DNA from: an uncultured archaeon
GTDB lineage: Archaea > Asgardarchaeota > Thorarchaeia > Thorarchaeales > Thorarchaeaceae
Length of the DNA: 64,000 nucleotides
Reading direction: 5' to 3'
Assembly (NCBI GenBank): GCA_964590575.1
Contig: CAZPWM010000002.1
Span: forward strand, 9,714 to 73,713
Both the position numbers and the translations under genes were made by a program. Of this stretch, positions 4,397 through 54,000 are shown piece after piece (the first letter of the stretch is position 1; each line of letters begins with the position of its first letter). Below the pieces are notes generated by a model, which did no database searches, was not told the DNA's origin, and saw only the letters and a program-made list of their open reading frames with translations.

Positions 4397-6412
4397 GTGA
4401 TTTCACATCTTGGACGGGTTATAGTTTCAGGTTCTAAGCTGATAGGAGCGTGTCCTTTGAAAGAAACCTTTGAGTTTGGTGGCGAGATTATCTGGCAGCC
4501 ATCTTTAGAACAAATACAACAGGCTAACCTTACAAGATTCATGAAACTTTATGGGATAGAAACCTTTGATGAGCTCATGAAACGTTCAACAGAAGATGTA
4601 GCGTGGTTTACAGATGCTCTTCTAAAATATCTTAACATTGAATTTTATGAACCATATGAAAAAGTTGTGGACCTCTCCAAAGGAATTGCATGGCCACACT
4701 GGTGTGTTAACGGGAAGATGAACATTGTTCACAATTGTTTGGACAAATACATGAACACACCTACTGAGAACCAATCAGCATTGATCTGGGAGGGAGAGGA
4801 TGGTACGACTCGCACAATGACATATAGTGAATTATACCGAGAGGCAAACAAGACTGCAAACGCGCTTCGTTCAATTGGTTTGGGAGTTGGAGACCCTATC
4901 GGAATCTACATGCCTATGGTTCCTGAAACTGTGGTCGCACTGTTAGCTATAGCCAAAATTGGTGGTATAATCCTTCCATTATTCTCAGGATTTGGAGTGA
5001 GTGCAATCGTTGACCGTTTGGGGGATGCTGATGCTAAGGCAATATTCACAGTTGATGGGTCTGCCCGCAGAGGTAAGATTATTCCAATGAAACCAATTGC
5101 AGATGAGGTTGCCACTAGTATTCCATCACTGAAACATATGATTGTCTTGAATTTAACAGGAACATCAATTGAAATGAAACCCGGCCGGGACCATTGGTGG
5201 GACGAACTCATCTCTGGTCAATCAGAATCTGCAGAAACGGAGATCACCGATGCTGAATCACCAATGATGATAATCTATACATCTGGCACCACTGGACTTG
5301 CTAAGGGCGCTGTTCACACTCACTGTGGATTTCCTATCAAGGCAGCTCAGGACATGTCATTTGGTACTGACTTACATCCTGGTGAAATAATATGGTGGAA
5401 TTCTGACCTAGGCTGGATGATGGGCCCGTGGTTAATATTTGGAGCATTGATTCTAGGAGGTACTTTCTTTATTTTAGATGGCGCCCCTGATTATCCTGGA
5501 CCCGGCCGTCTATGGGAGATAGTTGAGAAACACAAGGTGTCGATATTGGGTGTATCACCTACTCTAATTCGACTCCTGATGACCCATGGCGAAGGCCCGG
5601 TCAAACCACATGATTTGTCTTCACTCCGTTACTTTGCTTCAACGGGTGAGCCATGGAATCCTGATCCTTGGATGTGGCTTTTTGAAAAAGTTGGGAAGAA
5701 AAGGGTCCCAATCATTAACTATTCAGGTGGGACAGAAATCTCAGGAGGCATTGTCATGGGCAATCCTCTATTACCCCTCAAGGCTTGTGCATTCTCTGGT
5801 CCATGTCCAGGAATCGATGCTGATGTGTTCGATGAGGATGGCAAACCTATTCGAAATAAGGTAGGAGAACTGGTCATCAAATCTCCGTGGATAGGGATGA
5901 CACGGGGATTTTGGAAAAACTCCGAACGATATGAAAATACATACTGGTCTCGTTGGAAGAATACGTGGGTCCACGGTGACTTTGCAGCGATTGACTCGGA
6001 TGGACTCTGGTATATACTCGGTCGCTCTGATGACATCATTAAGGTCGCAGGCAAGCGATTCGGACCTGCGGAAGCAGAATCAGTCCTAGTCAGCCATCCT
6101 GCAGTTGCTGAAGCTGCAACAATAGGTGTTCCGCACAAGATAAAGCTCAATGAACTAGTTGTTTTCTGTGTACTTGTCCCAGGGGTTGAACCATCAGAGC
6201 TATTGAGAGAAGAACTGAAACAGTCAGTAGCCACGGCAATGGGAAAACCACTAACACCTAGAGCAGTCCTGTTCGTTTCTGACTTGCCTAAAACTAGGAA
6301 TGCAAAGGTGATGCGTAGAATGATTCGTGCAGCTTACTTAGGAGAAGACCCGGGGGATACTTCCTCATTGGTCAACCCTGAGGCAGTAGATGAGATAAAA
6401 AATGCAAAATAG
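4397..6412 (+). CDS. AMP-forming acyl-CoA synthetase (acetyl-CoA / acetoacetyl-CoA synthetase family)
   Basis: 671 aa; AMP-binding motif IYTSGTTGLAKGAVHTH; GRSDDIIKVAGKRFGPAEAE; C-terminal PKTRNAKVMRR lysine motif region. Confidence 0.85.
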   Translation: MISHLGRVIVSGSKLIGACPLKETFEFGGEIIWQPSLEQIQQANLTRFMKLYGIETFDELMKRSTEDVAWFTDALLKYLNIEFYEPYEKVVDLSKGIAWPHWCVNGKMNIVHNCLDKYMNTPTENQSALIWEGEDGTTRTMTYSELYREANKTANALRSIGLGVGDPIGIYMPMVPETVVALLAIAKIGGIILPLFSGFGVSAIVDRLGDADAKAIFTVDGSARRGKIIPMKPIADEVATSIPSLKHMIVLNLTGTSIEMKPGRDHWWDELISGQSESAETEITDAESPMMIIYTSGTTGLAKGAVHTHCGFPIKAAQDMSFGTDLHPGEIIWWNSDLGWMMGPWLIFGALILGGTFFILDGAPDYPGPGRLWEIVEKHKVSILGVSPTLIRLLMTHGEGPVKPHDLSSLRYFASTGEPWNPDPWMWLFEKVGKKRVPIINYSGGTEISGGIVMGNPLLPLKACAFSGPCPGIDADVFDEDGKPIRNKVGELVIKSPWIGMTRGFWKNSERYENTYWSRWKNTWVHGDFAAIDSDGLWYILGRSDDIIKVAGKRFGPAEAESVLVSHPAVAEAATIGVPHKIKLNELVVFCVLVPGVEPSELLREELKQSVATAMGKPLTPRAVLFVSDLPKTRNAKVMRRMIRAAYLGEDPGDTSSLVNPEAVDEIKNAK

Positions 6413-6610
6413 AGCTTATGATAAAAAGAAAGAAGAAGACCGGGGAGTCCCGAAAGACTTCTCCCGATCTTTTGATATTATTTCTTCTTTTTCTTAGCTG
6501 GTGCTTCAGTCTTTGTTTTCTTTGCTGGTTTCTTCTTTGCCATAGCAATCATATCCTGTTTGGGGTCGGATTGAACGAATTGCTATCAAGAAAGATTAAA
6601 CGACTTGGAC

Positions 6611-6691
6611 TCACCAATCGTCACTATCGTCGTCGTCTTCCCAGTCATCGTCGCCATCTTCAGCCCATACATCGTCATCATCGAAGTGCAT
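6611..6691 (-). CDS. micro-ORF, 26-aa Asp/Trp-rich acidic peptide (MHFDDDDVWAEDGDDDWEDDDDSDDW)
   Basis: Manual translation of minus strand; ATG start, TGA stop; paralog at 11728..11805 with conserved N- and C-termini and partly synonymous nucleotide differences. Confidence 0.35.
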   Translation of the reverse strand: MHFDDDDVWAEDGDDDWEDDDDSDDW

Positions 6692-6957
6692 TGATGCCAC
6701 CTCACGCTCGTGTCACACGAATCAAGTGTAAAAGATGTCTAATATTTTTTATAACACTCATATTACTTTAAATACTCTAAAAGGGCCTATTAATCCTTTA
6801 AAAAATAAATATGATTATATCAAAAGAAAATACATTGATATGGGTATTTAAATACGCTAGACAAAGATATTAACGAATATGATAGTCGCGTAGATGTGTC
6901 ACCTATGACATTGGAATTAATTCTGCCGCTGTATAAAGGACAATTGTGTAGCTCACG

Positions 6958-7797
6958 ATGACCGAAGCAAGTATAGATGAAATCGCTCTGGCAAAACCCA
7001 AACTCAAGAGTGATTCCAGACTAGTCATTTTACTCGGGTTACCTGAGGGTATCAAGGATACCTCTAAGAAACTAATGTCTCTCGCTGGTGTTGAGAAGGT
7101 TCGAAGAGGTCTGTTTATCGTTCAAGGATATTCAGAGAGTCATGAAGCGATTCTTCAATCCCAATCGTTTGTTTCATTCATCAAGACTCGCGAGATACCC
7201 AAAACTCGGAAAAGACTTGAGGATGAATATTCGGATCGAGTATTTTCAGTAGTTTCATTCTCCTATAGCAACCCAACGGCACAACAAAAGAAGCGTGTTG
7301 AACGACTTATCAAGAAAACAACAGGCATCAGATTAAGACCTGGATTGATTCTCTTTCCACTTCTCAGGGCTAAGGAACAAAGAAGAGTTCTGGGATCAGA
7401 AGATGAACGAATATTGATTGATTCAAATGATTTCAGCAGACTGATTCGTGAGAATGGAGGCATTGCTTTACGCTGGACACGTCTTAGGATTATTAACTTG
7501 GATGGCGCCAATCATCTCAAACATGCATTTGAGCAGACACTTTCTAGAGACCTGACTCCGTTAGAGGAAAAGATACGTGTCCTTCGTGAGATGAGTAGAG
7601 ACGTTGCTATTCCACTTATGAATGTGAAGAAGAACTATACAGTATTATCACATAGTTTTAGAGAATTGAAAACCAAATGGATGACAGCCAGACAACTATG
7701 GTTCTATGATGCAGAAAAAGATCTCAAGCGGACCTATAATATGCTGATTAATACCAGACGTGCAATTGTTTCTGAAGAGATTCGAAGGGGACAATGA
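6958..7797 (+). CDS. hypothetical protein (279 aa, basic, internal duplicated segment)
   Basis: Long ORF with AT-rich promoter-like upstream region; no family recognised. Confidence 0.5.
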   Translation: MTEASIDEIALAKPKLKSDSRLVILLGLPEGIKDTSKKLMSLAGVEKVRRGLFIVQGYSESHEAILQSQSFVSFIKTREIPKTRKRLEDEYSDRVFSVVSFSYSNPTAQQKKRVERLIKKTTGIRLRPGLILFPLLRAKEQRRVLGSEDERILIDSNDFSRLIRENGGIALRWTRLRIINLDGANHLKHAFEQTLSRDLTPLEEKIRVLREMSRDVAIPLMNVKKNYTVLSHSFRELKTKWMTARQLWFYDAEKDLKRTYNMLINTRRAIVSEEIRRGQ

Positions 7798-7819
7798 ACT
7801 CCTTATTTCTGATATTCAC

Positions 7820-9829
7820 CTATGAATCACAGTTATAGCATCCTGTATACAGGACCTGAACTCCGCCTAGACACCCATCCCTGAACACAGTCGTTCCCTT
7901 GAGTTGAAGCTTATCGGCCAACAAGAATATTTGTTCAACATCCTCAGTTGTGGCACTATTAGGTAGATTTGTGGTCTTACTGACTGCATTGTCAGTATGT
8001 TTCTGAAAGGCGGCCTGCATCCTAAGATGCCACTCGGGATCTATCTCTTGTGCTGCTTTGAATACCTGTTTGACATCATCGGGTACTCCATCTATATGTT
8101 GCACTGAACCTGTTCTTGCTACTTCATGCTCAATATTATCATTCCAGAATCCTCTCTCCACGGCTACCTTCTCAAAAAGCGGACTAACCTCACTAAGATG
8201 GATTCCTTCGGCAAGCATCCTGCTATGGGCTATTGCAAAAAGTGGTTCGATACCACTGCTGGTCTGCGCGATTAGACTGATGCTGCCCGTTGGTGCAATA
8301 GTGATTAGAGACGCATTTCGTTTCCATTTGTTTCGTTTCTTCAACAAAGCAAAATTCTCAAAATTCCCTCTGATTTTTGCTAGGTCAGCTGATGCACGTT
8401 CAGCTTTCCGTCGAATGAATGCAATAACCTCTTCAGCCTTTTCCAGTCCCTTGACAGAGTCATAGGCGATTCCTAGTTCTATTAGGAACTCCGCAAAACC
8501 CATGATACCGAGTCCAATCTTCCTATTAGCCTTGGTTCCGTATTCAATCTCCTTGACCGGATACACATTGAGGTCTATGATATTATCTAGAAAACGAACT
8601 GCGAGTCTGACAACCTCTTCGAGCCTAGGCCAATTGATATCACCATCGAGAACCATTTTTGAGAGGTTGATGCTTCCCAATACGCATGATTCATAGGGCA
8701 ACAAGGGCATTTCGCCACACGGGTTAGTTGATTCTATAAGATCTCCATTCAGCGGATGTTCCTCATTCATTCGGTCAATGAATACAAGACCTGGATCTCC
8801 AGTACTCCATGCGTTGTGCACGATTGCATCAAAAACTGCTCTTGCACTTATATTTTGAATCAACTCATTGGTGTGAGGTGCTATCAAACCAATTTCCTTC
8901 TCCTGGTACAAAGCCTCAAGAAACGGCTTTGTAATGGCGACTGAGATGTTGAAGTTCCTGAAAGACGCTTTGTCAGATTTGCACGAAATGAACTCCATAA
9001 TGTCTGGATGATCGCAACGAAGGATGGCCATACTCGCCCCACGCCTCCTGCCTCCTTGTTTAATAATTTCTGTGGCAGTATCATACACCTTCATGAATGA
9101 AATTGGGCCGCTAGCCACTCCTCCAGTAGTCCCAACTGTGGATCCCGCAGGTCTCAATCTAGAAAAAGAGAATCCTGTACCTCCACCTGATTTCTGAACA
9201 ATCGCCATGTGATGGAGTGATGTGAATATTGAATTCATATTATCCTCAATCGGAAGTACAAAGCATGCGCTACACTGGCCAATCTCAGTTCCTGCATTGA
9301 AGAGGGTTGGACTGTTGGGTAGAAACTCGAGGTTTGCCATCATGTAATAGAAGAGGTCATCATATTCTTTCACATCCGCACTCTTGTCATACTTCTTCTC
9401 AATGCTGGCTACTGCTCCAGACACTCTACGAAATAGTTGTGATGGAGTTTCAGTTGGATTACCCTCCTCATCCTTCAGAAGGTATCTTGATAGCACAGTT
9501 GCTGCGTTTGGACCAAACTTGAGATCATCTACAACCCCCATCATCTGGAGAATTCTACGAGCCTCATGGTGTTTCTCACGATGCTTCATATAGCGTCGAG
9601 CAATATCTGTGAAACCACGTAGCATTAGCGTGTCTTCAACAATGTCCTGAATCTCCTCGATGTGGATGACGTTTCGTTCTTGTTCACGAATTATTTGAAC
9701 AACTTCTTTTGTCAGTCCTCGGACAGGACCTGTATCTGCACTGATTGATTCGAATGCTTTCGTGATAGCAGCCTCTATCTTGGAATCATCAAAATCCACT
9801 ACTCTCTTATCTCGCTTCTCAACTTTCAA
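7820..9829 (-). CDS. nrdJ: adenosylcobalamin-dependent ribonucleoside-diphosphate reductase (class II RNR) with N-terminal ATP-cone
   Basis: ATP-cone (VEKRDKRVVDFDDSKI), class II active-site region NPCGEMPLLPYESCVLGSINLSKMV, C-terminal Cys tail CYNC. Confidence 0.9.
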   Translation of the reverse strand: MKVEKRDKRVVDFDDSKIEAAITKAFESISADTGPVRGLTKEVVQIIREQERNVIHIEEIQDIVEDTLMLRGFTDIARRYMKHREKHHEARRILQMMGVVDDLKFGPNAATVLSRYLLKDEEGNPTETPSQLFRRVSGAVASIEKKYDKSADVKEYDDLFYYMMANLEFLPNSPTLFNAGTEIGQCSACFVLPIEDNMNSIFTSLHHMAIVQKSGGGTGFSFSRLRPAGSTVGTTGGVASGPISFMKVYDTATEIIKQGGRRRGASMAILRCDHPDIMEFISCKSDKASFRNFNISVAITKPFLEALYQEKEIGLIAPHTNELIQNISARAVFDAIVHNAWSTGDPGLVFIDRMNEEHPLNGDLIESTNPCGEMPLLPYESCVLGSINLSKMVLDGDINWPRLEEVVRLAVRFLDNIIDLNVYPVKEIEYGTKANRKIGLGIMGFAEFLIELGIAYDSVKGLEKAEEVIAFIRRKAERASADLAKIRGNFENFALLKKRNKWKRNASLITIAPTGSISLIAQTSSGIEPLFAIAHSRMLAEGIHLSEVSPLFEKVAVERGFWNDNIEHEVARTGSVQHIDGVPDDVKQVFKAAQEIDPEWHLRMQAAFQKHTDNAVSKTTNLPNSATTEDVEQIFLLADKLQLKGTTVFRDGCLGGVQVLYTGCYNCDS

Positions 9830-9902
9830 CGTAGTTTCTCCTCACTGGCGGACTCTCTCACAAGTTGAAATGACTAATAGGCTATAAGCACCCCTTCTAT
9901 AT

Positions 9903-10322
9903 TTGACTTTACCAATGAGATTATGGAGTATTCATCCGAAGTATCTTGACACAAAGGGCTTAGTAGCCCTATGGAGAGAGTCCCTGCTTGCCCAGAAGGT
10001 GCTTCAAGGTAAAACTAAGGGATATAGATACCATCCTCAATTGGATCGGTTCAAGAAGACAGAGAATCCGATTGCATCAATTGGAATGTACTTGTATCAC
10101 GTTTATCTAGAGAGTAAGGAGAGGAATTACCATTTCCAGTTCTCAAAGATTGATACCATCGAGGATGTTCCTAGAATTAAAATATCGAATAATCTATTAA
10201 AATCTGAATTCCAACATCTTCTAAGAAAATTGGAATTGCGAAACATAGAGAGATACAAACGGTATCTCGTGATTGACAAAATAATTCCTCATCCATCTTT
10301 TGAAGTATCCTCTAGTAAGTAG
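9903..10322 (+). CDS. putative pyrimidine-dimer DNA glycosylase-like protein
   Basis: N-terminal RLWSIHPKYLDTKGLVALWRE.LLAQKVL.GKTKGY..HPQL resembles prokaryotic Pyr_excise-family proteins as I recall them; not verifiable here. Confidence 0.45.
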   Translation: MTLPMRLWSIHPKYLDTKGLVALWRESLLAQKVLQGKTKGYRYHPQLDRFKKTENPIASIGMYLYHVYLESKERNYHFQFSKIDTIEDVPRIKISNNLLKSEFQHLLRKLELRNIERYKRYLVIDKIIPHPSFEVSSSK

Positions 10323-10361
10323 TTGTTGTGCTACTGATTCTTTCTGTATCTACTCATTTTA

Positions 10362-11159
10362 TTACCCTGTACATGTTGCTTGAACAAAATAAACTGGATC
10401 TGCTTTTGAATACTCAAATCCCATGTTCTCGTATAGTTTCTGGGCTGGAGTGTTTTCCGCAAAATAATGTAGAATTACTTGTTCCGAATTCTCAAGAACT
10501 TCTTCCACAACTGCTTTCAAGCATGCTGCAGCGTACCCCTTTCTTCTATGCTTTGGATGTGTAGCGATATTTCCTATCTCTGTACCGTAAGGAGTGACAT
10601 AATGCACTCCCGCGACAGCCATTATTGATTGGTCATCCTCTATAATTCCATAGAATGGTCCAAGGTTCATAGCATTAGGGGTCCATGCTGGCGTACCACT
10701 TAGTCGGTATAGCTCTTTGAGCTGTTCAACATCCTTCATAGAAAGCCTGACCGGCTTTGTCTTGCAATCACATTGAAGTTGCGTTGTTCTGTCAGCAATC
10801 ATCTGTCTTTCTTCAATTGGTTTCAGAATTACACAAGCTTCGCCAAATTGATCAAGTTGTTCTTTCGTACAGATTGCTATGAACTCTTTTCCAACCAACC
10901 TTTCTGAATAATCTTCCATTATTTGTCGTAGTGACTCCACATTCCTGCACCAAAATGCTGTTGCCAAGAAATCCAAATCACTGTAGAGTGAAAACATAGC
11001 ATCAATTCTGCCATTTTCCACTAATACCCGAACATCGCACCAATCTTTCAGTTGTGTACAATCAGCAATCAACACGATATTGGATAGTGAATCCTCTGAT
11101 AGAATACTGAGCACATCATCAATTAGGTCATCTGAGAGTGTTTGGATTTGTGCGACCAT
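10362..11159 (-). CDS. GNAT family N-acetyltransferase
   Basis: C-terminal acetyl-CoA binding region HPKHRRKGYAAACLKAVVEEV...YENMGFE. Confidence 0.7.
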   Translation of the reverse strand: MVAQIQTLSDDLIDDVLSILSEDSLSNIVLIADCTQLKDWCDVRVLVENGRIDAMFSLYSDLDFLATAFWCRNVESLRQIMEDYSERLVGKEFIAICTKEQLDQFGEACVILKPIEERQMIADRTTQLQCDCKTKPVRLSMKDVEQLKELYRLSGTPAWTPNAMNLGPFYGIIEDDQSIMAVAGVHYVTPYGTEIGNIATHPKHRRKGYAAACLKAVVEEVLENSEQVILHYFAENTPAQKLYENMGFEYSKADPVYFVQATCTG

Positions 11160-11224
11160 AAGTCAATTTAGAACCCTTCTCCTTTTATCAATGGCTATCC
11201 AAATAAGAACTACAGGTGTGAATC

Positions 11225-11707
11225 ATGTGTCTAGAGATTAACCCAATTGGTGTGATTAGAACACCATTCAAATCTAGTGATAAAATTCCAATCCAATCAA
11301 GCAAGTCTGACACAATTGCTGAAGTTGAAGTGTTCCCAGAATTCTCTGAGGGACTTGATTCATTGGATGGATTCTCGCACGTCATCTTATTGTACTGGTT
11401 TCATAAAGTCCGACCTCACAAATTGAAAATCATACCATATCTGGAAACAAAGGAAAGAGGTCTTTTCTCCACGCGCGCACCATCGCGTCCTAATCCTATA
11501 GGACTCTCTATTGGCAAGATAATCCAAATCAAAGAGAATATTGTGATATTTAAGGGGGCCGACATGCTGAATGACACTCCACTCATCGATATCAAACCCT
11601 TTGTTCCTGAGTTTGACAATCGATTAGATGCTACTTCCGGGTGGCTTACTGACTCGTTCTGTTCTGAAAAGCACGATTATCTCGGTGATGATAGATTTCT
11701 AGATTGA
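11225..11707 (+). CDS. trmO: TsaA/YaeB-like SAM-dependent tRNA methyltransferase (TrmO family)
   Basis: PIGVIRTPF...FSHV.LLYWFH......L...P......GLF.TR.P.RPNPIGLS..KI pattern of UPF0066/TrmO. Confidence 0.8.
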   Translation: MCLEINPIGVIRTPFKSSDKIPIQSSKSDTIAEVEVFPEFSEGLDSLDGFSHVILLYWFHKVRPHKLKIIPYLETKERGLFSTRAPSRPNPIGLSIGKIIQIKENIVIFKGADMLNDTPLIDIKPFVPEFDNRLDATSGWLTDSFCSEKHDYLGDDRFLD

Positions 11708-11727
11708 GAATCCACAAAAGTTGAATA

Positions 11728-11805
11728 TTACCAATCGTCATCATCATTCCACTCATCGTCATCCCAATCTTCTTCTTCCCATAGATCATCATCATCGAAG
11801 TGCAT
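11728..11805 (-). CDS. micro-ORF, 25-aa Asp/Trp-rich acidic peptide (MHFDDDDLWEEEDWDDDEWNDDDDW), paralog of 6611..6691
   Basis: Manual translation; ATG start, TAA stop; same MHFDDDD[VL]W...DDW architecture. Confidence 0.35.
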   Translation of the reverse strand: MHFDDDDLWEEEDWDDDEWNDDDDW

Positions 11806-11870
11806 TCTTTCACCACAGCAATGTGCCATCAACTAGAATAATGCACAATGGAACTTTAATGGATCTCTGA

Positions 11871-12683
11871 TTAAAACACATCCAAATCATGCCCCGACAC
11901 GACTTCTCCATTATATTGTTCTGACACTTCTGATATCAGGTCCTCTTCTGTTTGCCCCCATAGAAGTTGGTGATACATCACTAGCAATCCCGGCTTAACC
12001 AGATTGGCTATCTCGGCTAATTCATGTGATGATGTATGAACTGTTGAATGGTACTTCTGCCAACCTTCTGGCCGACTCTCTAGTCCAACCGCAGAATACA
12101 CCTCATGAATCAGAACGTCACAGCCCTTCGCAATATCAACAAGATTCTGAGTAGGACTTGTATCTCCTGAAATTACAACTGTTCTATCGGGAGCTTCAAA
12201 CTTGTATCCATATGATTCCAATGAACCATGATCGACTTGGAATGCCTCAATCTCAATGAAATCGTCCTGGTAGATATGCCCCTCGGATATCTCATGTGTA
12301 TTCACAATATATGAAAATCTCTCAGCGGGTTCTAAGCCAAGAACACGTTCATTGATATCCACCTCATAAGCAGCCATGATGTGTCTAGTCATGTCAGTGA
12401 GACCCTTTGGCCCATACACTTCCAAAGGCTCAGTCCTTCCAGCAACCCCTGGAGTGAAGATGAGGTCTGGGTATCCGATAGTATGGTCTGAGTGTAGATG
12501 TGTTAGAAATGCTCTGGTGAGCTTAGTCACTTGGATGCCTGCTTTTGCTGCTCTTCTTACCACACCAGTTCCGAAATCTATGATGTACACAGACTCGTCA
12601 ACTGTTATTGCCACCGAGGGTCCGGACTTGTCTACCTCTGGATTTGGAGTTCCAGTCCCCAAGAGAATGACTTTACTCACCAA
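11871..12683 (-). CDS. MBL-fold metallo-hydrolase (RNase Z / beta-lactamase superfamily)
   Basis: HLHSDH motif (THLHSDHTIGYPD), additional His/Asp metal ligands spaced as in MBL fold. Confidence 0.75.
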   Translation of the reverse strand: MVSKVILLGTGTPNPEVDKSGPSVAITVDESVYIIDFGTGVVRRAAKAGIQVTKLTRAFLTHLHSDHTIGYPDLIFTPGVAGRTEPLEVYGPKGLTDMTRHIMAAYEVDINERVLGLEPAERFSYIVNTHEISEGHIYQDDFIEIEAFQVDHGSLESYGYKFEAPDRTVVISGDTSPTQNLVDIAKGCDVLIHEVYSAVGLESRPEGWQKYHSTVHTSSHELAEIANLVKPGLLVMYHQLLWGQTEEDLISEVSEQYNGEVVSGHDLDVF

Positions 12684-12717
12684 TTACACAACCTCCTAGT
12701 ACAGGGCTGCAGTTGGA

Positions 12718-13158
12718 TTATTGTTCCTCGTGTTTTACTAAGTTATCCAAAACTCGCTGAAGATACGTTTCAAACTGGTCCATCTCTTCAGGTTGAAAGC
12801 CTCTGTAGAAGATATTGGTCATCTTCTTTGAAACCTCAATGTATACGTTCAGCATTTGTCTAGTCTTCTCAGTCAACTCAATCAGAACCTTACGACGGTC
12901 CTCCTCTGATTGTACACGTCTAACAAGTCTGGCACTCTCAAGACTGTCTAACAGCTCACTCAGCGTTGATTTTCGAAGAAGTGTCTTCTTGATTAGTTTG
13001 TTTATTGGCACTCCATCCTCTTGCCAAAGTGCAAACAGGATTCTCCCCTGTCCTGGACCGATGTCGAGACCGCGCTCCTTCAATAGTTCTGAGAAGACTC
13101 TCCTTCCAAGATGATGAATCTGCGTTACTAGAAAACCGCCTGATCTCTGAGACATCAT
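12718..13158 (-). CDS. MarR family transcriptional regulator
   Basis: Winged HTH region GRILFALWQEDGVPINKLIKKTLLRKSTLSELLDSLESARLVRR..EDRR; 4-nt overlap with upstream gene (operon). Confidence 0.8.
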   Translation of the reverse strand: MMSQRSGGFLVTQIHHLGRRVFSELLKERGLDIGPGQGRILFALWQEDGVPINKLIKKTLLRKSTLSELLDSLESARLVRRVQSEEDRRKVLIELTEKTRQMLNVYIEVSKKMTNIFYRGFQPEEMDQFETYLQRVLDNLVKHEEQ

Positions 13159-13643
13159 TGTACATCACCTAGTTCTAGTTTGAATGTACTACTACCAGTC
13201 CAGCCCCTAGCTACCTTTGGTATGATTTTCAATACGGTATGGTCAGGGTCATCGTACCCCTTGGGGTAGTATCTTTCCCACCCCTCATGCCACATTTTCT
13301 TCTTCAGGTCCGAATCTTCAACAACCTCAATCTCTCCTCCAAACATAACCCCTTGCCAGTCATCAGGATTACAGTAGTAGACCGAGGTTTTGGGTCTTAA
13401 TCTAATATCCTCGATTTTTGTAGAGCTTGTATTGGTCGTAAAAATAATCAAGAAATCGTCCTTGTGCTCATCGAAAATCGATGTCAGTTTTGGGAATCGT
13501 TCCTTGTTTCGAAGATTGAACATCGCCCGGGTCTGAGGATATCCTTTCTCATCAACCGTTGTTAGATATGCTGGCCAGCCTGTATCCAACAGGTTCAGAC
13601 ACATCTCTCTGATATCTTTCTCATCCAACGGAAACAGCCTCAA
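13155..13643 (-). CDS. pyridoxamine 5'-phosphate oxidase-like FMN-binding split-barrel family protein
   Basis: Size and pattern (..GYPQTRAM.F......F.......K..........ED.RL) consistent with PNPOx-like/general stress protein 26 family; TTG start in track, alternative internal ATG possible. Confidence 0.6.
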   Translation of the reverse strand: MRLFPLDEKDIREMCLNLLDTGWPAYLTTVDEKGYPQTRAMFNLRNKERFPKLTSIFDEHKDDFLIIFTTNTSSTKIEDIRLRPKTSVYYCNPDDWQGVMFGGEIEVVEDSDLKKKMWHEGWERYYPKGYDDPDHTVLKIIPKVARGWTGSSTFKLELGDVQ

Positions 13644-48809: not shown

Positions 48810-49080
48810 ACTGAGAATTAGTGATTACTTCTTTGATCCACCTCGATCGGCTGCACTCTGTGCACGTCTAGCAAAACCTTGATTTCGACCAGACTTGGCT
48901 GAATGACTCTGGATTCTGGATGCTGAACTCTTGGACATTCCTTTTTTTCCCAATGATTCACCTCCGTATTCATCATGAGGAATACTTGGCAGAATCAGAA
49001 TATCAGACTTTGATGATGTGCATTGCATACGAATATTGTGCAAATCAGATTCACAGTACCTAGAGTTAAAACCTGTATCT
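48810..49080 (-). ncRNA. predicted TnpB omega-RNA (right-end element RNA) region
   Basis: Position immediately 3' of tnpB, GC-rich, bounded by terminator; established architecture of IS200/IS605 TnpB guide RNAs; exact ends unknown. Confidence 0.4.
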
Positions 49081-50816
49081 TACAATTGTGAGTGAACTGC
49101 AAGAGACTCCTGTGTTCCACCTTTCTCACGACTACTGTCACCAGCTTCTGAATGTCTGGGGTCTTTCAGAGTGTCGCAAGCTTTGCCCCTCTTCACTGGA
49201 ACATCGTTCCTCTGATGGGACCTGGCTTCTGTCCGCTGCATTGATTCACACTCACCAGTTGGTGCGATTGCAGTCGGTGTTTCCACAGCATTTGCCATGG
49301 CAAGGTCTTTGCCCCTCACAAACTCCACAAGTGAAGTCTGGTCATAGGAGCCAGCCACGGACTCCCCTTTCGAGTCTGGTGTCCCCTGGGGGAGTGCGGA
49401 CTTCCCTACAGAAGAAGACTTCTTCCTCCGGGCTTTCAGTATGGCCCTATCCTTAGAGGTGAGCCACATCCCTAGTCCGTTCTCATCTCTCAGTGAGGGG
49501 ATGAGCATGATGAGGCGCTTCCCAATGTTGAGAGCGCCATTCAGGTCGGCGTTCAGCTTTAGTCCACAAGTGGTACAGATGAAGAGATTCTGCTTCGGTC
49601 TCGCTCCCTTATGTCCGCATTTGTGACACATGATGGAGGTCCATTGCTCTGGAACTGCTTTGAACCTCTTGGGATCGAAACCAATTGATGCGAGCTTGTG
49701 CTCCAGCATCCCACTGATTCTTGCAAAGGCCCATCGGTGAATCTTTCCCCTGTACTCTCTTCCCCTGCTGTTCCCCTTGCGGGCTATGTTCCTGATTCCC
49801 TTCAGCCGACCGATTGAGACATAGAGGTCATTTTGGTTTGTCATCTCTCTGATGTGGTCAGAGATGTCCCTAATCAGTTTCTTGTCATACTCTATACTGA
49901 TTCGTTCTCTCTTTCCACTCAGACTCCTGAGCTGTGCAGTCACTCGATCAGTGTTCTGACCTTTGGAAACAAGGAGCTCTTTCTCTTTCTGGAGTGAAGC
50001 AACCCTCTCATCCAAAGACCTTATGCGTCGGAGCTTGTCCTCTTGTTTCCAATATCTGACGTGCTTGTATCCCTTCTTGGTTAGAAGGACTGAACACGCA
50101 GCCTTGTTTATTCCAAGGTCGATGGAGAGAACAGCAAGGGGCTTTCTAGCGGTATCAATCCTGTCAACAGCAAGAGTGACGGTGAAGATAGCCCACCACT
50201 TGCGACGAGAATCCTTGAAGATTCGAACTGTCTTCACATCTCCCTCCTTCATCCTGTTTAGATGAAATGATGAGATGGAGAGGGGAATCATGAGTCTATC
50301 ATGCTGATAACGCCCCTCATTCACAGAGTCCAGCGAGTCCCGTAGTTTCAACCAGTGTCTAATCTCCAGCTCTGGTGAGTATACAAGCTCAAAACGTTGG
50401 ATGAATGCAAAGCGTGGGATCTTTCGAGTAGAATATCCTATTCTCCTAAGGGGTTTGGAACCACCTTTTTCAAGATAGCTCTGCCACATGGCAACTGCAG
50501 TACCCCTACACTCCTGAAACTCGTTCACTGAAATGTTTGGAAATCGAACCTTGAAGTCATGGGGTACCGAACTTCGGTTGGCTTTGCCTCGGGATGCTGT
50601 CAGGGTGAGTTCATCTAGTTTATTTGCGTCAAGTTTACTTCGTCTACGACCTATCAGCAACTCGTCTTCGTGACATTCAATCACTCCAAGATACGCCCTG
50701 ATGACTCTTGTGTCTCTTCCAGTAATTCGGTTGAGCCGAGTCTTCTGCTTGTCAGTCATAGAGTCCCAACGTATTGGGACCTTCACACTGATTATTGTAC
50801 CCTTGGAGCGACCCAT
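49080..50816 (-). CDS. tnpB: TnpB/OrfB-family RNA-guided endonuclease-like transposase-associated protein (IS200/IS605, IS1341-like), with ~130-aa low-complexity C-terminal extension
   Basis: RuvC-I LSIDLGINKAA, RuvC-II E, zinc finger CHKCGH...CTTCG, RuvC-III NADLNGALNIGKR; no tnpA nearby. Confidence 0.85.
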   Translation of the reverse strand: MGRSKGTIISVKVPIRWDSMTDKQKTRLNRITGRDTRVIRAYLGVIECHEDELLIGRRRSKLDANKLDELTLTASRGKANRSSVPHDFKVRFPNISVNEFQECRGTAVAMWQSYLEKGGSKPLRRIGYSTRKIPRFAFIQRFELVYSPELEIRHWLKLRDSLDSVNEGRYQHDRLMIPLSISSFHLNRMKEGDVKTVRIFKDSRRKWWAIFTVTLAVDRIDTARKPLAVLSIDLGINKAACSVLLTKKGYKHVRYWKQEDKLRRIRSLDERVASLQKEKELLVSKGQNTDRVTAQLRSLSGKRERISIEYDKKLIRDISDHIREMTNQNDLYVSIGRLKGIRNIARKGNSRGREYRGKIHRWAFARISGMLEHKLASIGFDPKRFKAVPEQWTSIMCHKCGHKGARPKQNLFICTTCGLKLNADLNGALNIGKRLIMLIPSLRDENGLGMWLTSKDRAILKARRKKSSSVGKSALPQGTPDSKGESVAGSYDQTSLVEFVRGKDLAMANAVETPTAIAPTGECESMQRTEARSHQRNDVPVKRGKACDTLKDPRHSEAGDSSREKGGTQESLAVHSQL

Positions 50817-51065: not shown

Positions 51066-54000
51066 ATGGGTCGCAAGCCTAGGGAGATACATCCGAATGC
51101 AATACTGACTGTCTCGATCTATACAGGACTTGCTGCATTGGTCAGGCTTGCGAGAAAGCGAGTTGACAAGAAGACACGGAAATACCTTGAGAGCATTCTA
51201 ACACATTGGAGCAAAGCTCGAGAAGAACACAAGAAGAATCGAGAGAGTGTTGGAAGACAACGACTTGACTTCTCCTCAATCAAGAACGCAGAGTCCAACA
51301 TGCGAAAATTCTTCCTCAAGATTCTCTGGCACAGTACGCGACGTTATGGGAACAAGGAATTCAAGCGGGTATACAGCTGGGAAGAGGGAACTGTTGGACC
51401 ACTTAATGCATTACTCAACTACCTTGGAGCCCGACTGAGAGACCTAGCAATGACCAGATATCCATTTCCAGAACCCGAGAAATTCCAGATCAGGGTATAT
51501 CCAGATGAGACAAGATTGACGGTTCAAAAGAAACACGTGTCTAATTATGCACAGGATAATGCTGAAGACACATACTGGAAGGCAGGATACAAGGGAAACA
51601 GGAAACATCCCACAGTGTTGTTGACACACCCCTCACTACCAGGATTGGACTTTGTTGATATGATACGTGCCCATGGTGTTGAGCTTGTCCGTCAGTGTTT
51701 CATCCACAATGTTCCACGGTCTGAAGCTCACAGGTACATCAGATTGTTGCTCCATAGACTCACTCCGTTCTTGGACCATGTCTATACTCAAGGAAAGTGT
51801 GGTAGAAACTACTTCGAGCCAGATGCCGACAAGGAGCTCAGAAGACTGGTTCTGGAGATCCGTAGTCGATACAGTGGGCGTGTGGGGAAGAAACAGTCCA
51901 TATCCAGAGGTCTGGACCTGGACATCCCGGAACCCGATGTGGACATCTTGTGGAAGAAAGTGAGTGAGCTGGTTGAAAACACTCAGGACAAGAAGACAAG
52001 AAAGAGATACGGAAAGATTCTGGATAATATTGACCAAGGACTAATTGTAGACAGGGACATCCAGAAGCTCTATGACCAGGTCTTTGCCCTTGGACAGAAG
52101 GAGGGAAATGACTGGCACAGAGTCCTCCTGTCGGACCTTCACCACCCCGTGTCGTTGAGGTCTGTGATCTTTGCTGGGGACAGGATGCTTGACAAGCCCA
52201 CATCGGTCCTGATTGTAGCCGAACTCCCAGTGAAAGGACTCGAAGGGATTGGACGCATAGATTTGACCGTGTTCATCAGGCTAAACATCAAGGGGCGCGT
52301 GTTCTGGAGTCCTGTGATGGTCATTGAGGTCAAGTCAAAGACCTCTTTCGACTTCAATCTCTATGCTGTGAAGACTGGTAAGAAGAAAGAGTGGCCCCCA
52401 GTACTATACGTATGGAAGAGAATTCTGACACAGGAGGAATGGGACAGGACCATAGAGTCAGACCCTGATGACCGGGTCTTAAAGCAACTCGAGGCCTACG
52501 AAAAGGCATTGTTGGAGGAGAGCAGGACTCTGATTCCCAATGGTGTCGAACTCCCAAAGAGGCTCCTGAAGGGAGTTATTGTGCTTGACACAGATCAGGA
52601 CTACTCGGAGGTATTCAATGCTTTCCACACTCTTCTCGATGAACTGACCACTGAGATTCTCAAAGGCGGACTTGATGTGAGAGCAACTCAGACACTGTCT
52701 CTCAAGTCAGATGATGTTGGTGTTACCATTCCACGAGTTGCACTGATGCTTCTAGAGAGCGAGAACATAGACACATTCCTCAGGGAGCAGTCAGCTACTT
52801 TGTCACTCTCTGTTGAGAATCCCTTCAAGGAGAGAGTGTCTGATGACCGTCTGCTGACACACTATGTTTCAATTTCTTCTTCAACATCTTTCGGGAACGC
52901 AGCAGCATGGGTTTCTAGAAACTGGCACCTTTTGAACCACATCGAGGAGGTCGCTGAAGGATTGAGTGAGGACCTACAAGTCTACTGGCTCGATCTCTTG
53001 GGTGACTATCCATCCAAACAACTCATCAAGAGAAGGTTTGGTCTTGACACTCTATTGAAGCACAAGCAGATTGCCAAGAAGAGGCATGAAGCACTGACCT
53101 CTCTCCTTGAGAGTATCACCTTTGTCAACCTGAGAAACAATGTTGAGTCTATTATCTCTGGGGAATCTGCCGAACTCCAAGAGATCAAGATGAAAGGCCC
53201 TCATGACATGGAGAGAATCATCATTGTTGATGGATGGGTTCAAATCAGAGAGATGGTTTCTCCAGGTGAAGCGGACATTCTGAGAAACTTTGAAAACCAC
53301 CTCTTAGATGTTCTACCCACCCAGAATGTGAATGTGATTTGGATTGACAGTGGAGTCACCCACACAAAGATGAACAAGCACTATCAGAGGGCCTGTATAA
53401 GACCTCTACGTCACGACTCCCCTCGCCGGTTTCACATAGACGAAATTATCTACAATGTACCAACTGCACCACGGTTGTTTGGTTGGAGGGTTCCAAGAAA
53501 TGAGGACACGAGGTTCATCATCCAAGACACTCCAACCTCCGCAGATCCCTGGATACGACCCATAAGAGTGCCGCAACTGAGGGGATGGGCCCGAAAGTAT
53601 CGAGGAGTCACAAAAAGGGATGGATTCGTCGACCCAGCAGATGTCTATGGGATTGACTTCGAGGGAGTACCTATGTATGGTCGTTCTGTGACACTCAATG
53701 AGGTCCACTCATCGATTGCACCCCTGACATCTGAAACTGTAAAACATCTGCAAGGAATTGGAAAGACCCTCATCCCAAGTCTATCAAGGCGAGAGGAATC
53801 AGCTCCAGACAGACAGTCAACAGAGAAACAATGGAGGGGGGTTCCGTTGCCCGTCACCAGAAAGGACTCTCCTTCACTCACCGACAGAATGACTTTCACA
53901 CCTGGGAGACCTCCTCCACAGCATCACAAGAATAGGGGATTGTATGTTGATTTCTTGAAAATCAAGAGGGGCTGGTACTATGACAGAATCCCCATTGATA

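Follow-up and report, generated by a model that had tools for sequence, protein, structure and literature searches.

The acidic C-terminal tails of E. coli SSB (...DDDIPF) and of T7 gp2.5 end in Phe and compete with single-stranded DNA (ssDNA) for a basic cleft, and SSB-type tails recruit partners. DNA-mimic proteins (Ocr, ArdA, CarS, DMP19) are strongly negative and inhibit or redirect DNA-binding proteins, CarS acting as an anti-repressor, and prothymosin-alpha and histone H1 form a pair composed of a disordered polyanion and a Lys-rich polycation. DSS1, a small, acidic, Trp-containing disordered protein with many partners, shuts down DNA binding by BRCA2 HD-OB1 (PMC11329725, PMC6218214), and in both bacteria and eukaryotes an acidic run from codon 4 leads to intrinsic ribosome destabilisation (PMC9718836, PMC12673854). 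Here we analyse a stretch of 64,000 nucleotides (hereafter the window) from an uncultured archaeon of the Asgard lineage Thorarchaeia (GenBank assembly GCA_964590575.1, contig CAZPWM010000002.1, positions 9,714 to 73,713), in which two very short open reading frames (micro-ORFs) encode Asp/Glu-rich, Trp-punctuated peptides. These peptides are of a known kind, the small, acidic, aromatic-anchored disordered protein or mimic, and are new in their size, their free-standing form, the existence of two paralogues, and the fact that a poly-lysine micro-gene and a basic orphan are paired with them.

The two micro-ORFs lie on the same strand of the window:
6611..6691, minus strand: type A acidic/Trp micro-ORF (copy 1), ATG...TGA, 26 amino acids plus stop, MHFDDDDVWAEDGDDDWEDDDDSDDW, net charge -16
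11728..11805, minus strand: type B acidic/Trp micro-ORF (copy 2), 25 amino acids plus stop, MHFDDDDLWEEEDWDDDEWNDDDDW, net charge -17

An earlier description of this DNA, made from its letters alone (the sequence-only reading), had ascribed to both copies an MHFDDDD start, periodic Trp residues and a DDW-stop ending, and re-reading of the sequence agrees. The two copies are the only ORFs of 20-60 amino acids with at least 50% Asp/Glu in the window, and no comparable ORF appeared in 200 simulated windows (first-order Markov, using the window's dinucleotide statistics). Across the family the peptides have 23-33 residues and a net charge of -16 to -21 (-16 to -19 in type A), with about 70% Asp/Glu from codon 4 and three to six Trp, Phe or Tyr residues per peptide, separated by 4-8 residues. 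The last residue is aromatic in 13/13 type-A-like and 29/31 type-B-like peptides, and is Trp or Phe in 42 of the 44. We infer that the peptides are intrinsically disordered polyanions with aromatic anchors, and the best explanation of the micro-ORFs is that they are two paralogous micro-genes, independently expressed.

We recovered about 45 distinct family peptides, all from Thorarchaeota-group metagenome-assembled genomes (MAGs) or metagenome contigs, so that the two-member family of the sequence-only reading holds within this window and is exceeded beyond it by many Thorarchaeota-group orthologues. A scan of 185,579 species, each represented by one genome, with a degenerate DNA pattern encoding MHFDDDD gave 58 matches, five of which were true micro-ORFs, all in Asgard MAGs (four Thorarchaeota, one Promethearchaeota); the other 53 were internal to longer reading frames, or were short ORFs without acidic/Trp composition. 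With a looser pattern, metagenome contigs yielded 11 more loci, the remaining matches being matrixin-type metalloproteases and one phage protein. In metagenome loci L066, L071, L081 and others the peptide motif HFDDD(D/E)xW coincides with matrixin GD(A/M)HFDDDExW, a by-product of the search pattern, yet also a possible lead towards metal binding. Both copies occur on contig L073, separated by 4.6 kb and in the gene order of the window. Protein databases, queried with a concatenation of both peptides, added further variants within accidentally upstream-extended gene calls (P0001-P0034), several of which start at TTG or GTG immediately after GAGGTGGA. No larger protein containing the motif was found among 5.8 billion sequences, and the micro-ORF is free-standing in the sense that it has its own Shine-Dalgarno (SD) site, start and stop and is not the tail of a larger protein.

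Neither peptide has a match in Pfam, NCBIfam or PADLOC, or in PDB sequences searched with a profile, which bears out the earlier impression that the family is unannotated. Where a source is named, it is Thorarchaeota, Sifarchaeia, 'Promethearchaeota' or, in one case, a Lokiarchaeota-labelled MAG, all within the Asgard kingdom Promethearchaeati; the local synteny of the Lokiarchaeota-labelled MAG matches a Baja Thorarchaeota genome. The window itself had matches among metagenome-derived records only, and its MBL and MarR proteins show 64-88% identity to those of labelled MAGs. The family is confined to Thorarchaeota-group Asgard archaea and, as judged by sequence comparison, is without detectable relatives outside one Asgard clade. 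Since the genome-wide scans demanded an MHF(D/E)4xW start, and more divergent members were reached through synteny only, this phyletic range is probably underestimated. In viral contigs the family was not found, the only matches being an unrelated phage protein (MHFEDDDNWEQ...), and a viral or mobile origin was ruled out on this ground.

Type A orthologues were identified in L004, L022/L089, L067, L073, L078, L088/L101, L090, L128 and L129 and, in more divergent form, in L125, L127 and L130, and type B orthologues in L039, L049, L054/L080, L065, L073, L116, L117-L121 and L124, together with type-B-like proteins among P0002-P0034. Comparison of seven type A orthologues gave proportions of synonymous and nonsynonymous differences of 0.66 (pS) and 0.091 (pN), hence a pN/pS of 0.14, with 4, 5 and 17 variable columns at codon positions 1, 2 and 3. 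For six type B orthologues the corresponding values were a pS of 0.92, a pN of 0.035 and a pN/pS of 0.04, with 2, 0 and 16 variable columns. In both types synonymous sites are near saturation and replacement sites are barely altered; because the substitutions are nearly all synonymous, selection acts on the peptide itself and not on a DNA repeat, as the sequence-only reading had argued from the Asp codon changes between its two copies. Stops (TGA, TAA, TAG) and starts (ATG, TTG, GTG) vary among orthologues while the peptide is retained. The type B core LWEEEDWDDDEW is nearly invariant, following an LW-EEED-W-DDDE-W pattern in 31 sequences (EEED in 27/31; DDDE in 22/31 and EDDE in 6/31) at saturated GAT/GAC and GAA/GAG sites, and this near invariance shows that the order of Glu and Asp is constrained, beyond mere charge. 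Homologues and conservation exist, and the region is coding rather than an untranslated region (UTR) of the flanking genes, two of the points on which the sequence-only reading had made its proposal depend. We hold with high confidence that these are real, translated and conserved micro-protein genes. Rfam returned nothing relevant for 6300-12000; a weak snoR66 C/D-box match at 10075-10166 on the minus strand (23 bits against a gathering threshold of 43, E=0.25) lies within the Pyr_excise gene and is probably due to chance.

The type A micro-ORF belongs to a compact unit with the following elements:
6744..6754, minus strand: candidate TATA-like box TTATAAAAAAT (position of the motif), with a second candidate, TTTAAAG, at about -81
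6718..6734, minus strand: leader element CTTTTACACTTGATTCG, consensus TTTTACTCTTGATT, about 45 nucleotides 5' of the ATG
6698..6703, minus strand: Shine-Dalgarno site GAGGTG, 6 nucleotides 5' of the type A ATG
6544..6610, minus strand: 67-nucleotide spacer between the acidic and the lysine-rich ORF, whose 3' end GGATATGATTGCT is an SD-like site for the second ORF
6478..6543, minus strand: poly-lysine micro-ORF, 21 amino acids, MAKKKPAKKTKTEAPAKKKKK, net charge +10, co-oriented with and 3' of type A
6424..6470, minus strand: terminator-like GC hairpin plus T-rich run, -19 kcal/mol, closing the acidic plus basic two-ORF unit

GAGGTG(A) is found at -10 to -13 in all type A loci, and the leader element, which may mark the start of the 5' UTR, is kept in 10/10 aligned loci, including lineages with 30-44% U279 identity (U279 being the orphan protein encoded next to type A). 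The TATA-like box is partly conserved among loci, so that its assignment as a promoter is tentative. The poly-lysine ORF reads MAKKKPAKK...KKKKK across loci (21-23 amino acids, net charge +10 to +12, pN/pS 0.27), with the MAKKKP start and the KKKKK C-terminus conserved. It is kept in L073, L078, L088/L101, L089, L128 and L129, the last of which has a U279 identity of 44% only, and it starts in L090, where the sequence ends. In L004 the 5' half of the ORF has been lost through a deletion, L125 and L127 lack the whole ORF, and it is found beside type A only. RNAalifold gave no covariation support for a structure in the type A spacer (covariation term +0.67); across six type A loci it detected no covariation outside the terminator and no conserved attenuator-like structure, the terminator being the sole helix with compensatory changes (columns 299-337 of the six-locus alignment).

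The unit as a whole is flanked by a convergent acyl-CoA synthetase gene and by the divergent U279 gene. Copy 1 had been described as free-standing and convergent with a plus-strand gene, a description that has to be amended, as the poly-lysine micro-ORF and the terminator intervene before the acyl-CoA synthetase gene; copy 2 lies 65 nucleotides behind a same-strand MBL-fold gene and 20 nucleotides from a convergent TrmO gene. On the opposite strand, a 117-amino-acid ORF (6418-6771, plus strand) runs antisense to both the acidic and the poly-lysine micro-ORFs; it is a low-complexity artefact with no counterpart in L073. At the same place in the NCBI MAG GCA_048885145.1 (L128, 440-664, plus strand), a 74-amino-acid 'gene' has been called antisense, masking the real micro-genes.

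Acidic ORFs of this kind are very rare by chance, and the association of type A with its divergent neighbour is therefore the strongest functional clue:
6958..7797, plus strand: U279, a 279-amino-acid orphan, net charge +19, pI 10.2, divergent from type A

An acidic/aromatic micro-ORF with the same leader and SD site lies divergently 5' of U279 in every readable U279 locus, and the divergent pairing is present in 13/13 distinct synteny-checked loci, down to 30% U279 identity. It was seen in the window and in L067, L073, L078, L088/L101, L089, L090, L128, L129, L125/L126, L127 and L130, with seven Thorarchaeota contigs and one Sifarchaeia MAG among the lineages. The paired peptides are MFFDDEDTWDDDDDLDDDDWDDDDFDDDNDF and (V/M)HFDDEDIYADEEDLEDDEWEDDDEDW in lineages with 43-44% U279 identity, and MKPYRDEDDWEEDDEEDWEDDDWEDDDDDDW and MKPYRDEDWEEDDDDWEDDDDEDWEDDEDDDW in two genomes with 30% identity. 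U279 is without a Pfam or NCBIfam family, and its homologues, all named 'hypothetical protein', come from Thorarchaeota, Sifarchaeia, Promethearchaeota and one Lokiarchaeota-labelled MAG only, the same narrow taxonomic range as the peptides. They are strongly basic, with pI values of 10.2-11.1 and a net charge of +19 to +33, and many of their Lys and Arg residues are invariant, among them K111, K112, R116, R125, R127 and R172. An exact-sequence search with the window's own U279 retrieved no record. Among the immediate neighbours U279 is the sole strongly basic protein; the Pyr_excise glycosylase, about 3 kb away, is basic too (pI 9.9), and the MBL protein is acidic. The AlphaFold2 model of U279 (pLDDT 84.7, pTM 0.79) has two ferredoxin-like beta-alpha-beta-beta-alpha-beta domains and a three-helix bundle; its best PDB fold match is the repressor PaaX (8a39, E=2.9e-3, probability 0.93, TM 0.25), and weaker matches to Cas2 cover the second domain. 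U279 is probably a nucleic-acid-binding or regulatory protein with a Cas2/PaaX-like fold. We consider a functional link between type A and U279 to be somewhat favoured by these data.

In L127 and L130 a second acidic/aromatic micro-ORF (...DEDWPEEFWDDDIEEDYDDW) convergently overlaps the 3' end of U279:
L127, 2341-2430, minus strand: third-kind acidic/aromatic micro-ORF, (M)SSEEEFDDYDDWPEEFWDDDVEDDYDDW, overlapping the 3' end of the U279 homologue
L130, 1749-1850, minus strand: third-kind acidic/aromatic micro-ORF, MPVYEEIPDDDDESDEDWPEEFWDDDIEEDYDDW, overlapping the 3' end of the U279 homologue

This third kind may be the orthologue of type B. The intergenic region 6692-6957 contains conserved non-coding motifs, including CGTTAATATCTTTGTCTA and GGTGACACATCT. 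The former, about 190 nucleotides 5' of the acidic ATG, is probably the U279 promoter on the opposite strand; TTTGATA(A/T) occurs at about -135, and a motif near the U279 start, (A/T)GGTGACAC(ATCT), repeats the sequence around the SD site of the acidic ORF (GAGGTGACATCT).

Type B has a different setting:
11871..13643, minus strand: upstream gene cluster, with PNPOx-like (13155-13643), MarR (12718-13158) and MBL-fold/RNase-Z-like (11871-12683) genes, assigned with Pfam and NCBIfam
11854..11860, minus strand: TATA-like ATTAAAG, 49-55 nucleotides 5' of the type B start, just past the MBL stop codon
11810..11816, minus strand: SD-like GTGGTGA, 5' of the type B ATG

GAGGTG stands at -11/-12 in other type B loci, where the start codon that follows is in several cases TTG or GTG. 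ATTAAAG or ATAAAAG starts 51-55 nucleotides 5' of the start codon in 8/10 type B loci, which suggests that type B has its own promoter, and this geometry would fit an archaeal promoter with a leader of about 25 nucleotides. The promoter signals that the sequence-only reading had proposed to look for would take the form of a TATA-like box at a fixed distance in type B, and of a candidate conserved in part only in type A. The PNPOx-MarR-MBL order is kept before type B in L039, L049, L054, L117 and L118, while the downstream gene differs (a convergent TrmO in the window and L124, DinB in L117); the MBL protein has a net charge of -23. In L125 (2591-3532, minus strand; 43% U279 identity), MarR and PNPOx adjoin U279 directly, with neither an MBL gene nor a type B ORF in between. 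The type A and type B neighbourhoods, which are separated by 5 kb in the window, may have formed a single locus in the past.

Set against the described systems, the peptides resemble DSS1/Sem1 (PF05160) in being small, disordered and very acidic with conserved Trp anchors, and docking on basic or hydrophobic surfaces of partners is the mode that we propose here. They are, however, archaeal, have 23-33 residues as against 70-89 in DSS1, come as two paralogues with a poly-lysine partner gene, and show no detectable homology to DSS1. With the tails of SSB and of T7 gp2.5 and gp4 they share an Asp/Glu run closing in a C-terminal aromatic residue, but those tails are covalently joined to an OB-fold protein, whereas the peptide is a separate gene product, longer and with several internal Trp anchors. 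Their negative charge density (-16 to -21 over 23-33 residues) is as high as expected of DNA mimics, and CarS parallels a possible peptide-U279 pair; the DNA mimics, in contrast, are folded proteins of 50 to more than 100 amino acids with a rigid scaffold, whereas the peptides are too short to fold alone, and none is homologous. Like prothymosin-alpha with H1, type A (-16 to -19) is co-encoded with a candidate cationic partner (+10 to +12), with the difference that here both are micro-peptides of one two-ORF unit, and that the cationic one is dispensable in some lineages. Acidic leader peptides such as mgtL are likewise short ORFs with an N-terminal acidic run (PMC9718836, PMC12673854), but the present family conserves the order of its residues, which goes well beyond charge; there is no regulated gene 3' of type B, and type A is kept even where it has none.

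The reading that we prefer, tentatively and by analogy with these systems, is that the micro-genes encode trans-acting polyanionic peptides with aromatic anchors which mimic nucleic acid and dock on basic partners, U279 first. A peptide of this type would be a nucleic-acid mimic or an unattached acidic-aromatic tail that acts in trans, its Asp/Glu residues mimicking the phosphate backbone and its Trp residues serving as hydrophobic or base-like anchors, and would dock on basic surfaces of its partners in competition with nucleic acid or another ligand. U279 would be the likeliest partner of type A, and the co-encoded poly-lysine peptide another partner, a counter-ion that can be dispensed with. 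For type B we would expect a partner of its own, a stereospecific one being implied by the exact Glu/Asp order of the peptide. The sequence-only reading had suggested three roles, those of a metal chelator, a mimic of acidic-aromatic motifs and a leader peptide. The presence of a basic partner protein and of a poly-lysine partner, together with the lack of a consistent gene 3' of type B, favours the mimic among these and disfavours the leader peptide.

Several observations weigh against this proposal. In the window's lineage type B adjoins neither U279 nor any basic protein; the divergent adjacency is equally compatible with U279 being a mere transcriptional regulator, and its best fold match, though weak, is to a repressor; the loss of the poly-lysine ORF in at least three lineages that keep the acidic ORF means that the poly-lysine peptide is not an obligate partner; and, as acidic runs from codon 4 destabilise ribosomes, efficient synthesis of the peptides is not guaranteed. 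An extended version of the same proposal, which we regard as speculative and unlikely, would be a Thorarchaeota-specific three-part polyelectrolyte module, in which the nucleic-acid-mimic micropeptide switches U279 on or off, the poly-lysine micropeptide titrates it, and peptide output, for which the ribosome has to get through an extreme acidic run, possibly reads out Mg2+/polyamine or translation status. If it were true, this module would contain the smallest known genetically encoded nucleic-acid mimic, and an independently arisen functional analogue of DSS1 in Asgard archaea.

Pairs of a regulator and its divergent target are common, and the PaaX match of U279 together with the deeply conserved motifs of the shared intergenic region, including the GGTGACA(C)ATCT repeat, would also suit a transcription factor acting on the divergent micro-gene, with the peptides working on unrelated targets or as a bulk polyanion buffering Ca2+, Mg2+, other metals or polyamines. 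We consider this explanation possible but doubtful, since U279 has no recognisable winged-helix DNA-binding domain, its N-terminal domain being beta-alpha-beta-beta-alpha-beta, and since the two acidic micro-ORFs that flank U279 in L127 and L130 are inexplicable by one bidirectional promoter. As for a buffer, poly-Asp/Glu binds divalent cations, and the N-terminal HFDDD(D/E)xW is similar to a segment of matrixin catalytic domains, HFDDDExW, which accounted for most chance matches in the metagenome pattern scan. In matrixins this segment supplies structural Zn/Ca ligands. An HFDDDE motif is mentioned for MMP-9 (PMC3980597). The matrixin matches, however, run on into ...HEAGHALGLGHS and a zincin domain (HExxHxxGxxH), whereas the micro-ORFs end after 23-33 residues; many type B members have Tyr, Arg, Phe, Gln or Asn in place of His, and a bulk ion buffer needs no fixed Glu/Asp order, fixed Trp positions or C-terminal aromatic residue. 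The same features bear on a cis-acting leader or sensor ORF, whose acidic run would destabilise or stall the ribosome according to Mg2+, polyamines or translation factors and thereby control the Lys-rich ORF (type A) or the stability of the MBL-cluster mRNA (type B). Short ORFs with such an Asp/Glu content from codon 4 are the strongest described class of intrinsic ribosome destabilisers (PMC9718836, PMC12673854), and the type A transcript does carry a conserved spacer and a second ORF, itself Lys-rich and likewise hard to translate. We nevertheless judge a leader unlikely: destabilisation depends on charge and not on order, yet the family conserves Glu/Asp order, Trp positions and the C-terminal Trp; no gene is consistently found downstream of type B, its neighbour being TrmO (convergent) in the window and L124 and DinB in L117; type A survives loss of the downstream ORF in L004, L125 and L127; the six type A loci share no attenuator-like RNA structure; and the sole 'effector' would be a 21-amino-acid peptide.

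An archaeal homologue or forerunner of DSS1/Sem1, or a relative of another eukaryotic acidic-Trp motif (the WASP-family acidic 'A' region or the W-acidic kinesin-light-chain motif), would fit the Asgard origin of the family. The type B profile aligns with the DSS1 segment HVWEDNWDDDNVEDD at a score that whole-protein shuffles equalled in only 10/2000 cases for human DSS1 (sequence verified against PDB chains) and 4/2000 for yeast Sem1. When shuffling was confined to the acidic segment, however, 614/3000 and 312/3000 shuffles scored at least as high as the real order; the likeness to the ordered DSS1 motif ([VI]WE.NWDD...DDF) is therefore compositional, and DSS1/Sem1 homology, initially promising by its profile score, was rejected. 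Six peptides gave no Pfam DSS1_SEM1 match at E<=10, the family profile had no match among PDB sequences, 141 DSS1 entries included, the Trp spacing is W-x3-W in DSS1 as against W-x4-W here, and the peptides, at one third of the length, have no counterpart of the C-terminal helix of DSS1. The partners of DSS1 (lid PCI subunits, BRCA2) are not known in archaea, and we regard this origin as highly improbable. Trp is a frequent modification site in ribosomally synthesised and post-translationally modified peptides (RiPPs), and type B always lies 3' of the PNPOx-like, MarR and MBL cluster, whose MBL-fold and flavin-dependent PNPOx-like enzymes could modify a RiPP-like precursor. Such a precursor is nonetheless very unlikely, as type A has no such enzymes nearby; the neighbours (acyl-CoA synthetase, U279, ribonucleotide reductase, PNPOx-like, MarR, MBL, TrmO) include no radical-SAM, YcaO, lanthipeptide-type or peptidase/exporter gene; the peptides are not organised into leader and core and contain no Cys, Ser or Thr; a TATA-like box and an SD site belong to type B itself; and L125 retains PNPOx and MarR without the MBL gene or a type B ORF. 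There remains the view that the micro-ORFs are non-functional, as chance ORFs, as a GAT/GAC-rich DNA repeat or as the antisense of the 117-amino-acid plus-strand ORF (6418-6771). Their low complexity, the fact that most gene callers ignore them, the overlapping ORF and the antisense 74-amino-acid call in one NCBI MAG could all be cited in its favour. The comparative data refute this view and leave it with next to no probability: codon-position pattern and pN/pS fit the minus-strand frame only, the plus-strand ORF is not conserved, SD site, start and stop recur at the same places in dozens of contigs, and the simulated windows held nothing comparable.

These genes of 23-33 codons are overlooked by gene callers, and in at least one MAG were replaced by a wrong antisense call, yet they are among the most constrained sequences of their locus. 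That a peptide with such an acidic content from codon 4 should have stayed intact over deep divergence is an unexpected matter of composition, and since translation in bacteria and eukaryotes is aborted by acidic runs at the N-terminus, these genes offer a natural test case for archaeal ribosomes. Almost no small proteins have been characterised in Asgard archaea, and the acidic peptide, the poly-lysine peptide and the basic orphan form a conserved trio that provides a testable hypothesis of a lineage-specific function in this group.

Elsewhere in the window, a class II ribonucleotide reductase (7820-9829, minus strand) is uninterrupted, whereas its copies in L088 and L078 carry an insertion of about 1 kb at residue 371 (two tblastn segments), probably an intein. 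Further along, an ORF of 1879 amino acids (51066-56705, plus strand) has no Pfam match at E<=1e-5, and a 578-amino-acid ORF (49080-50816, minus strand) contains a Cas12f1-like/TnpB TNB domain (PF07282, E=1.4e-13), which indicates a transposon-associated nuclease.

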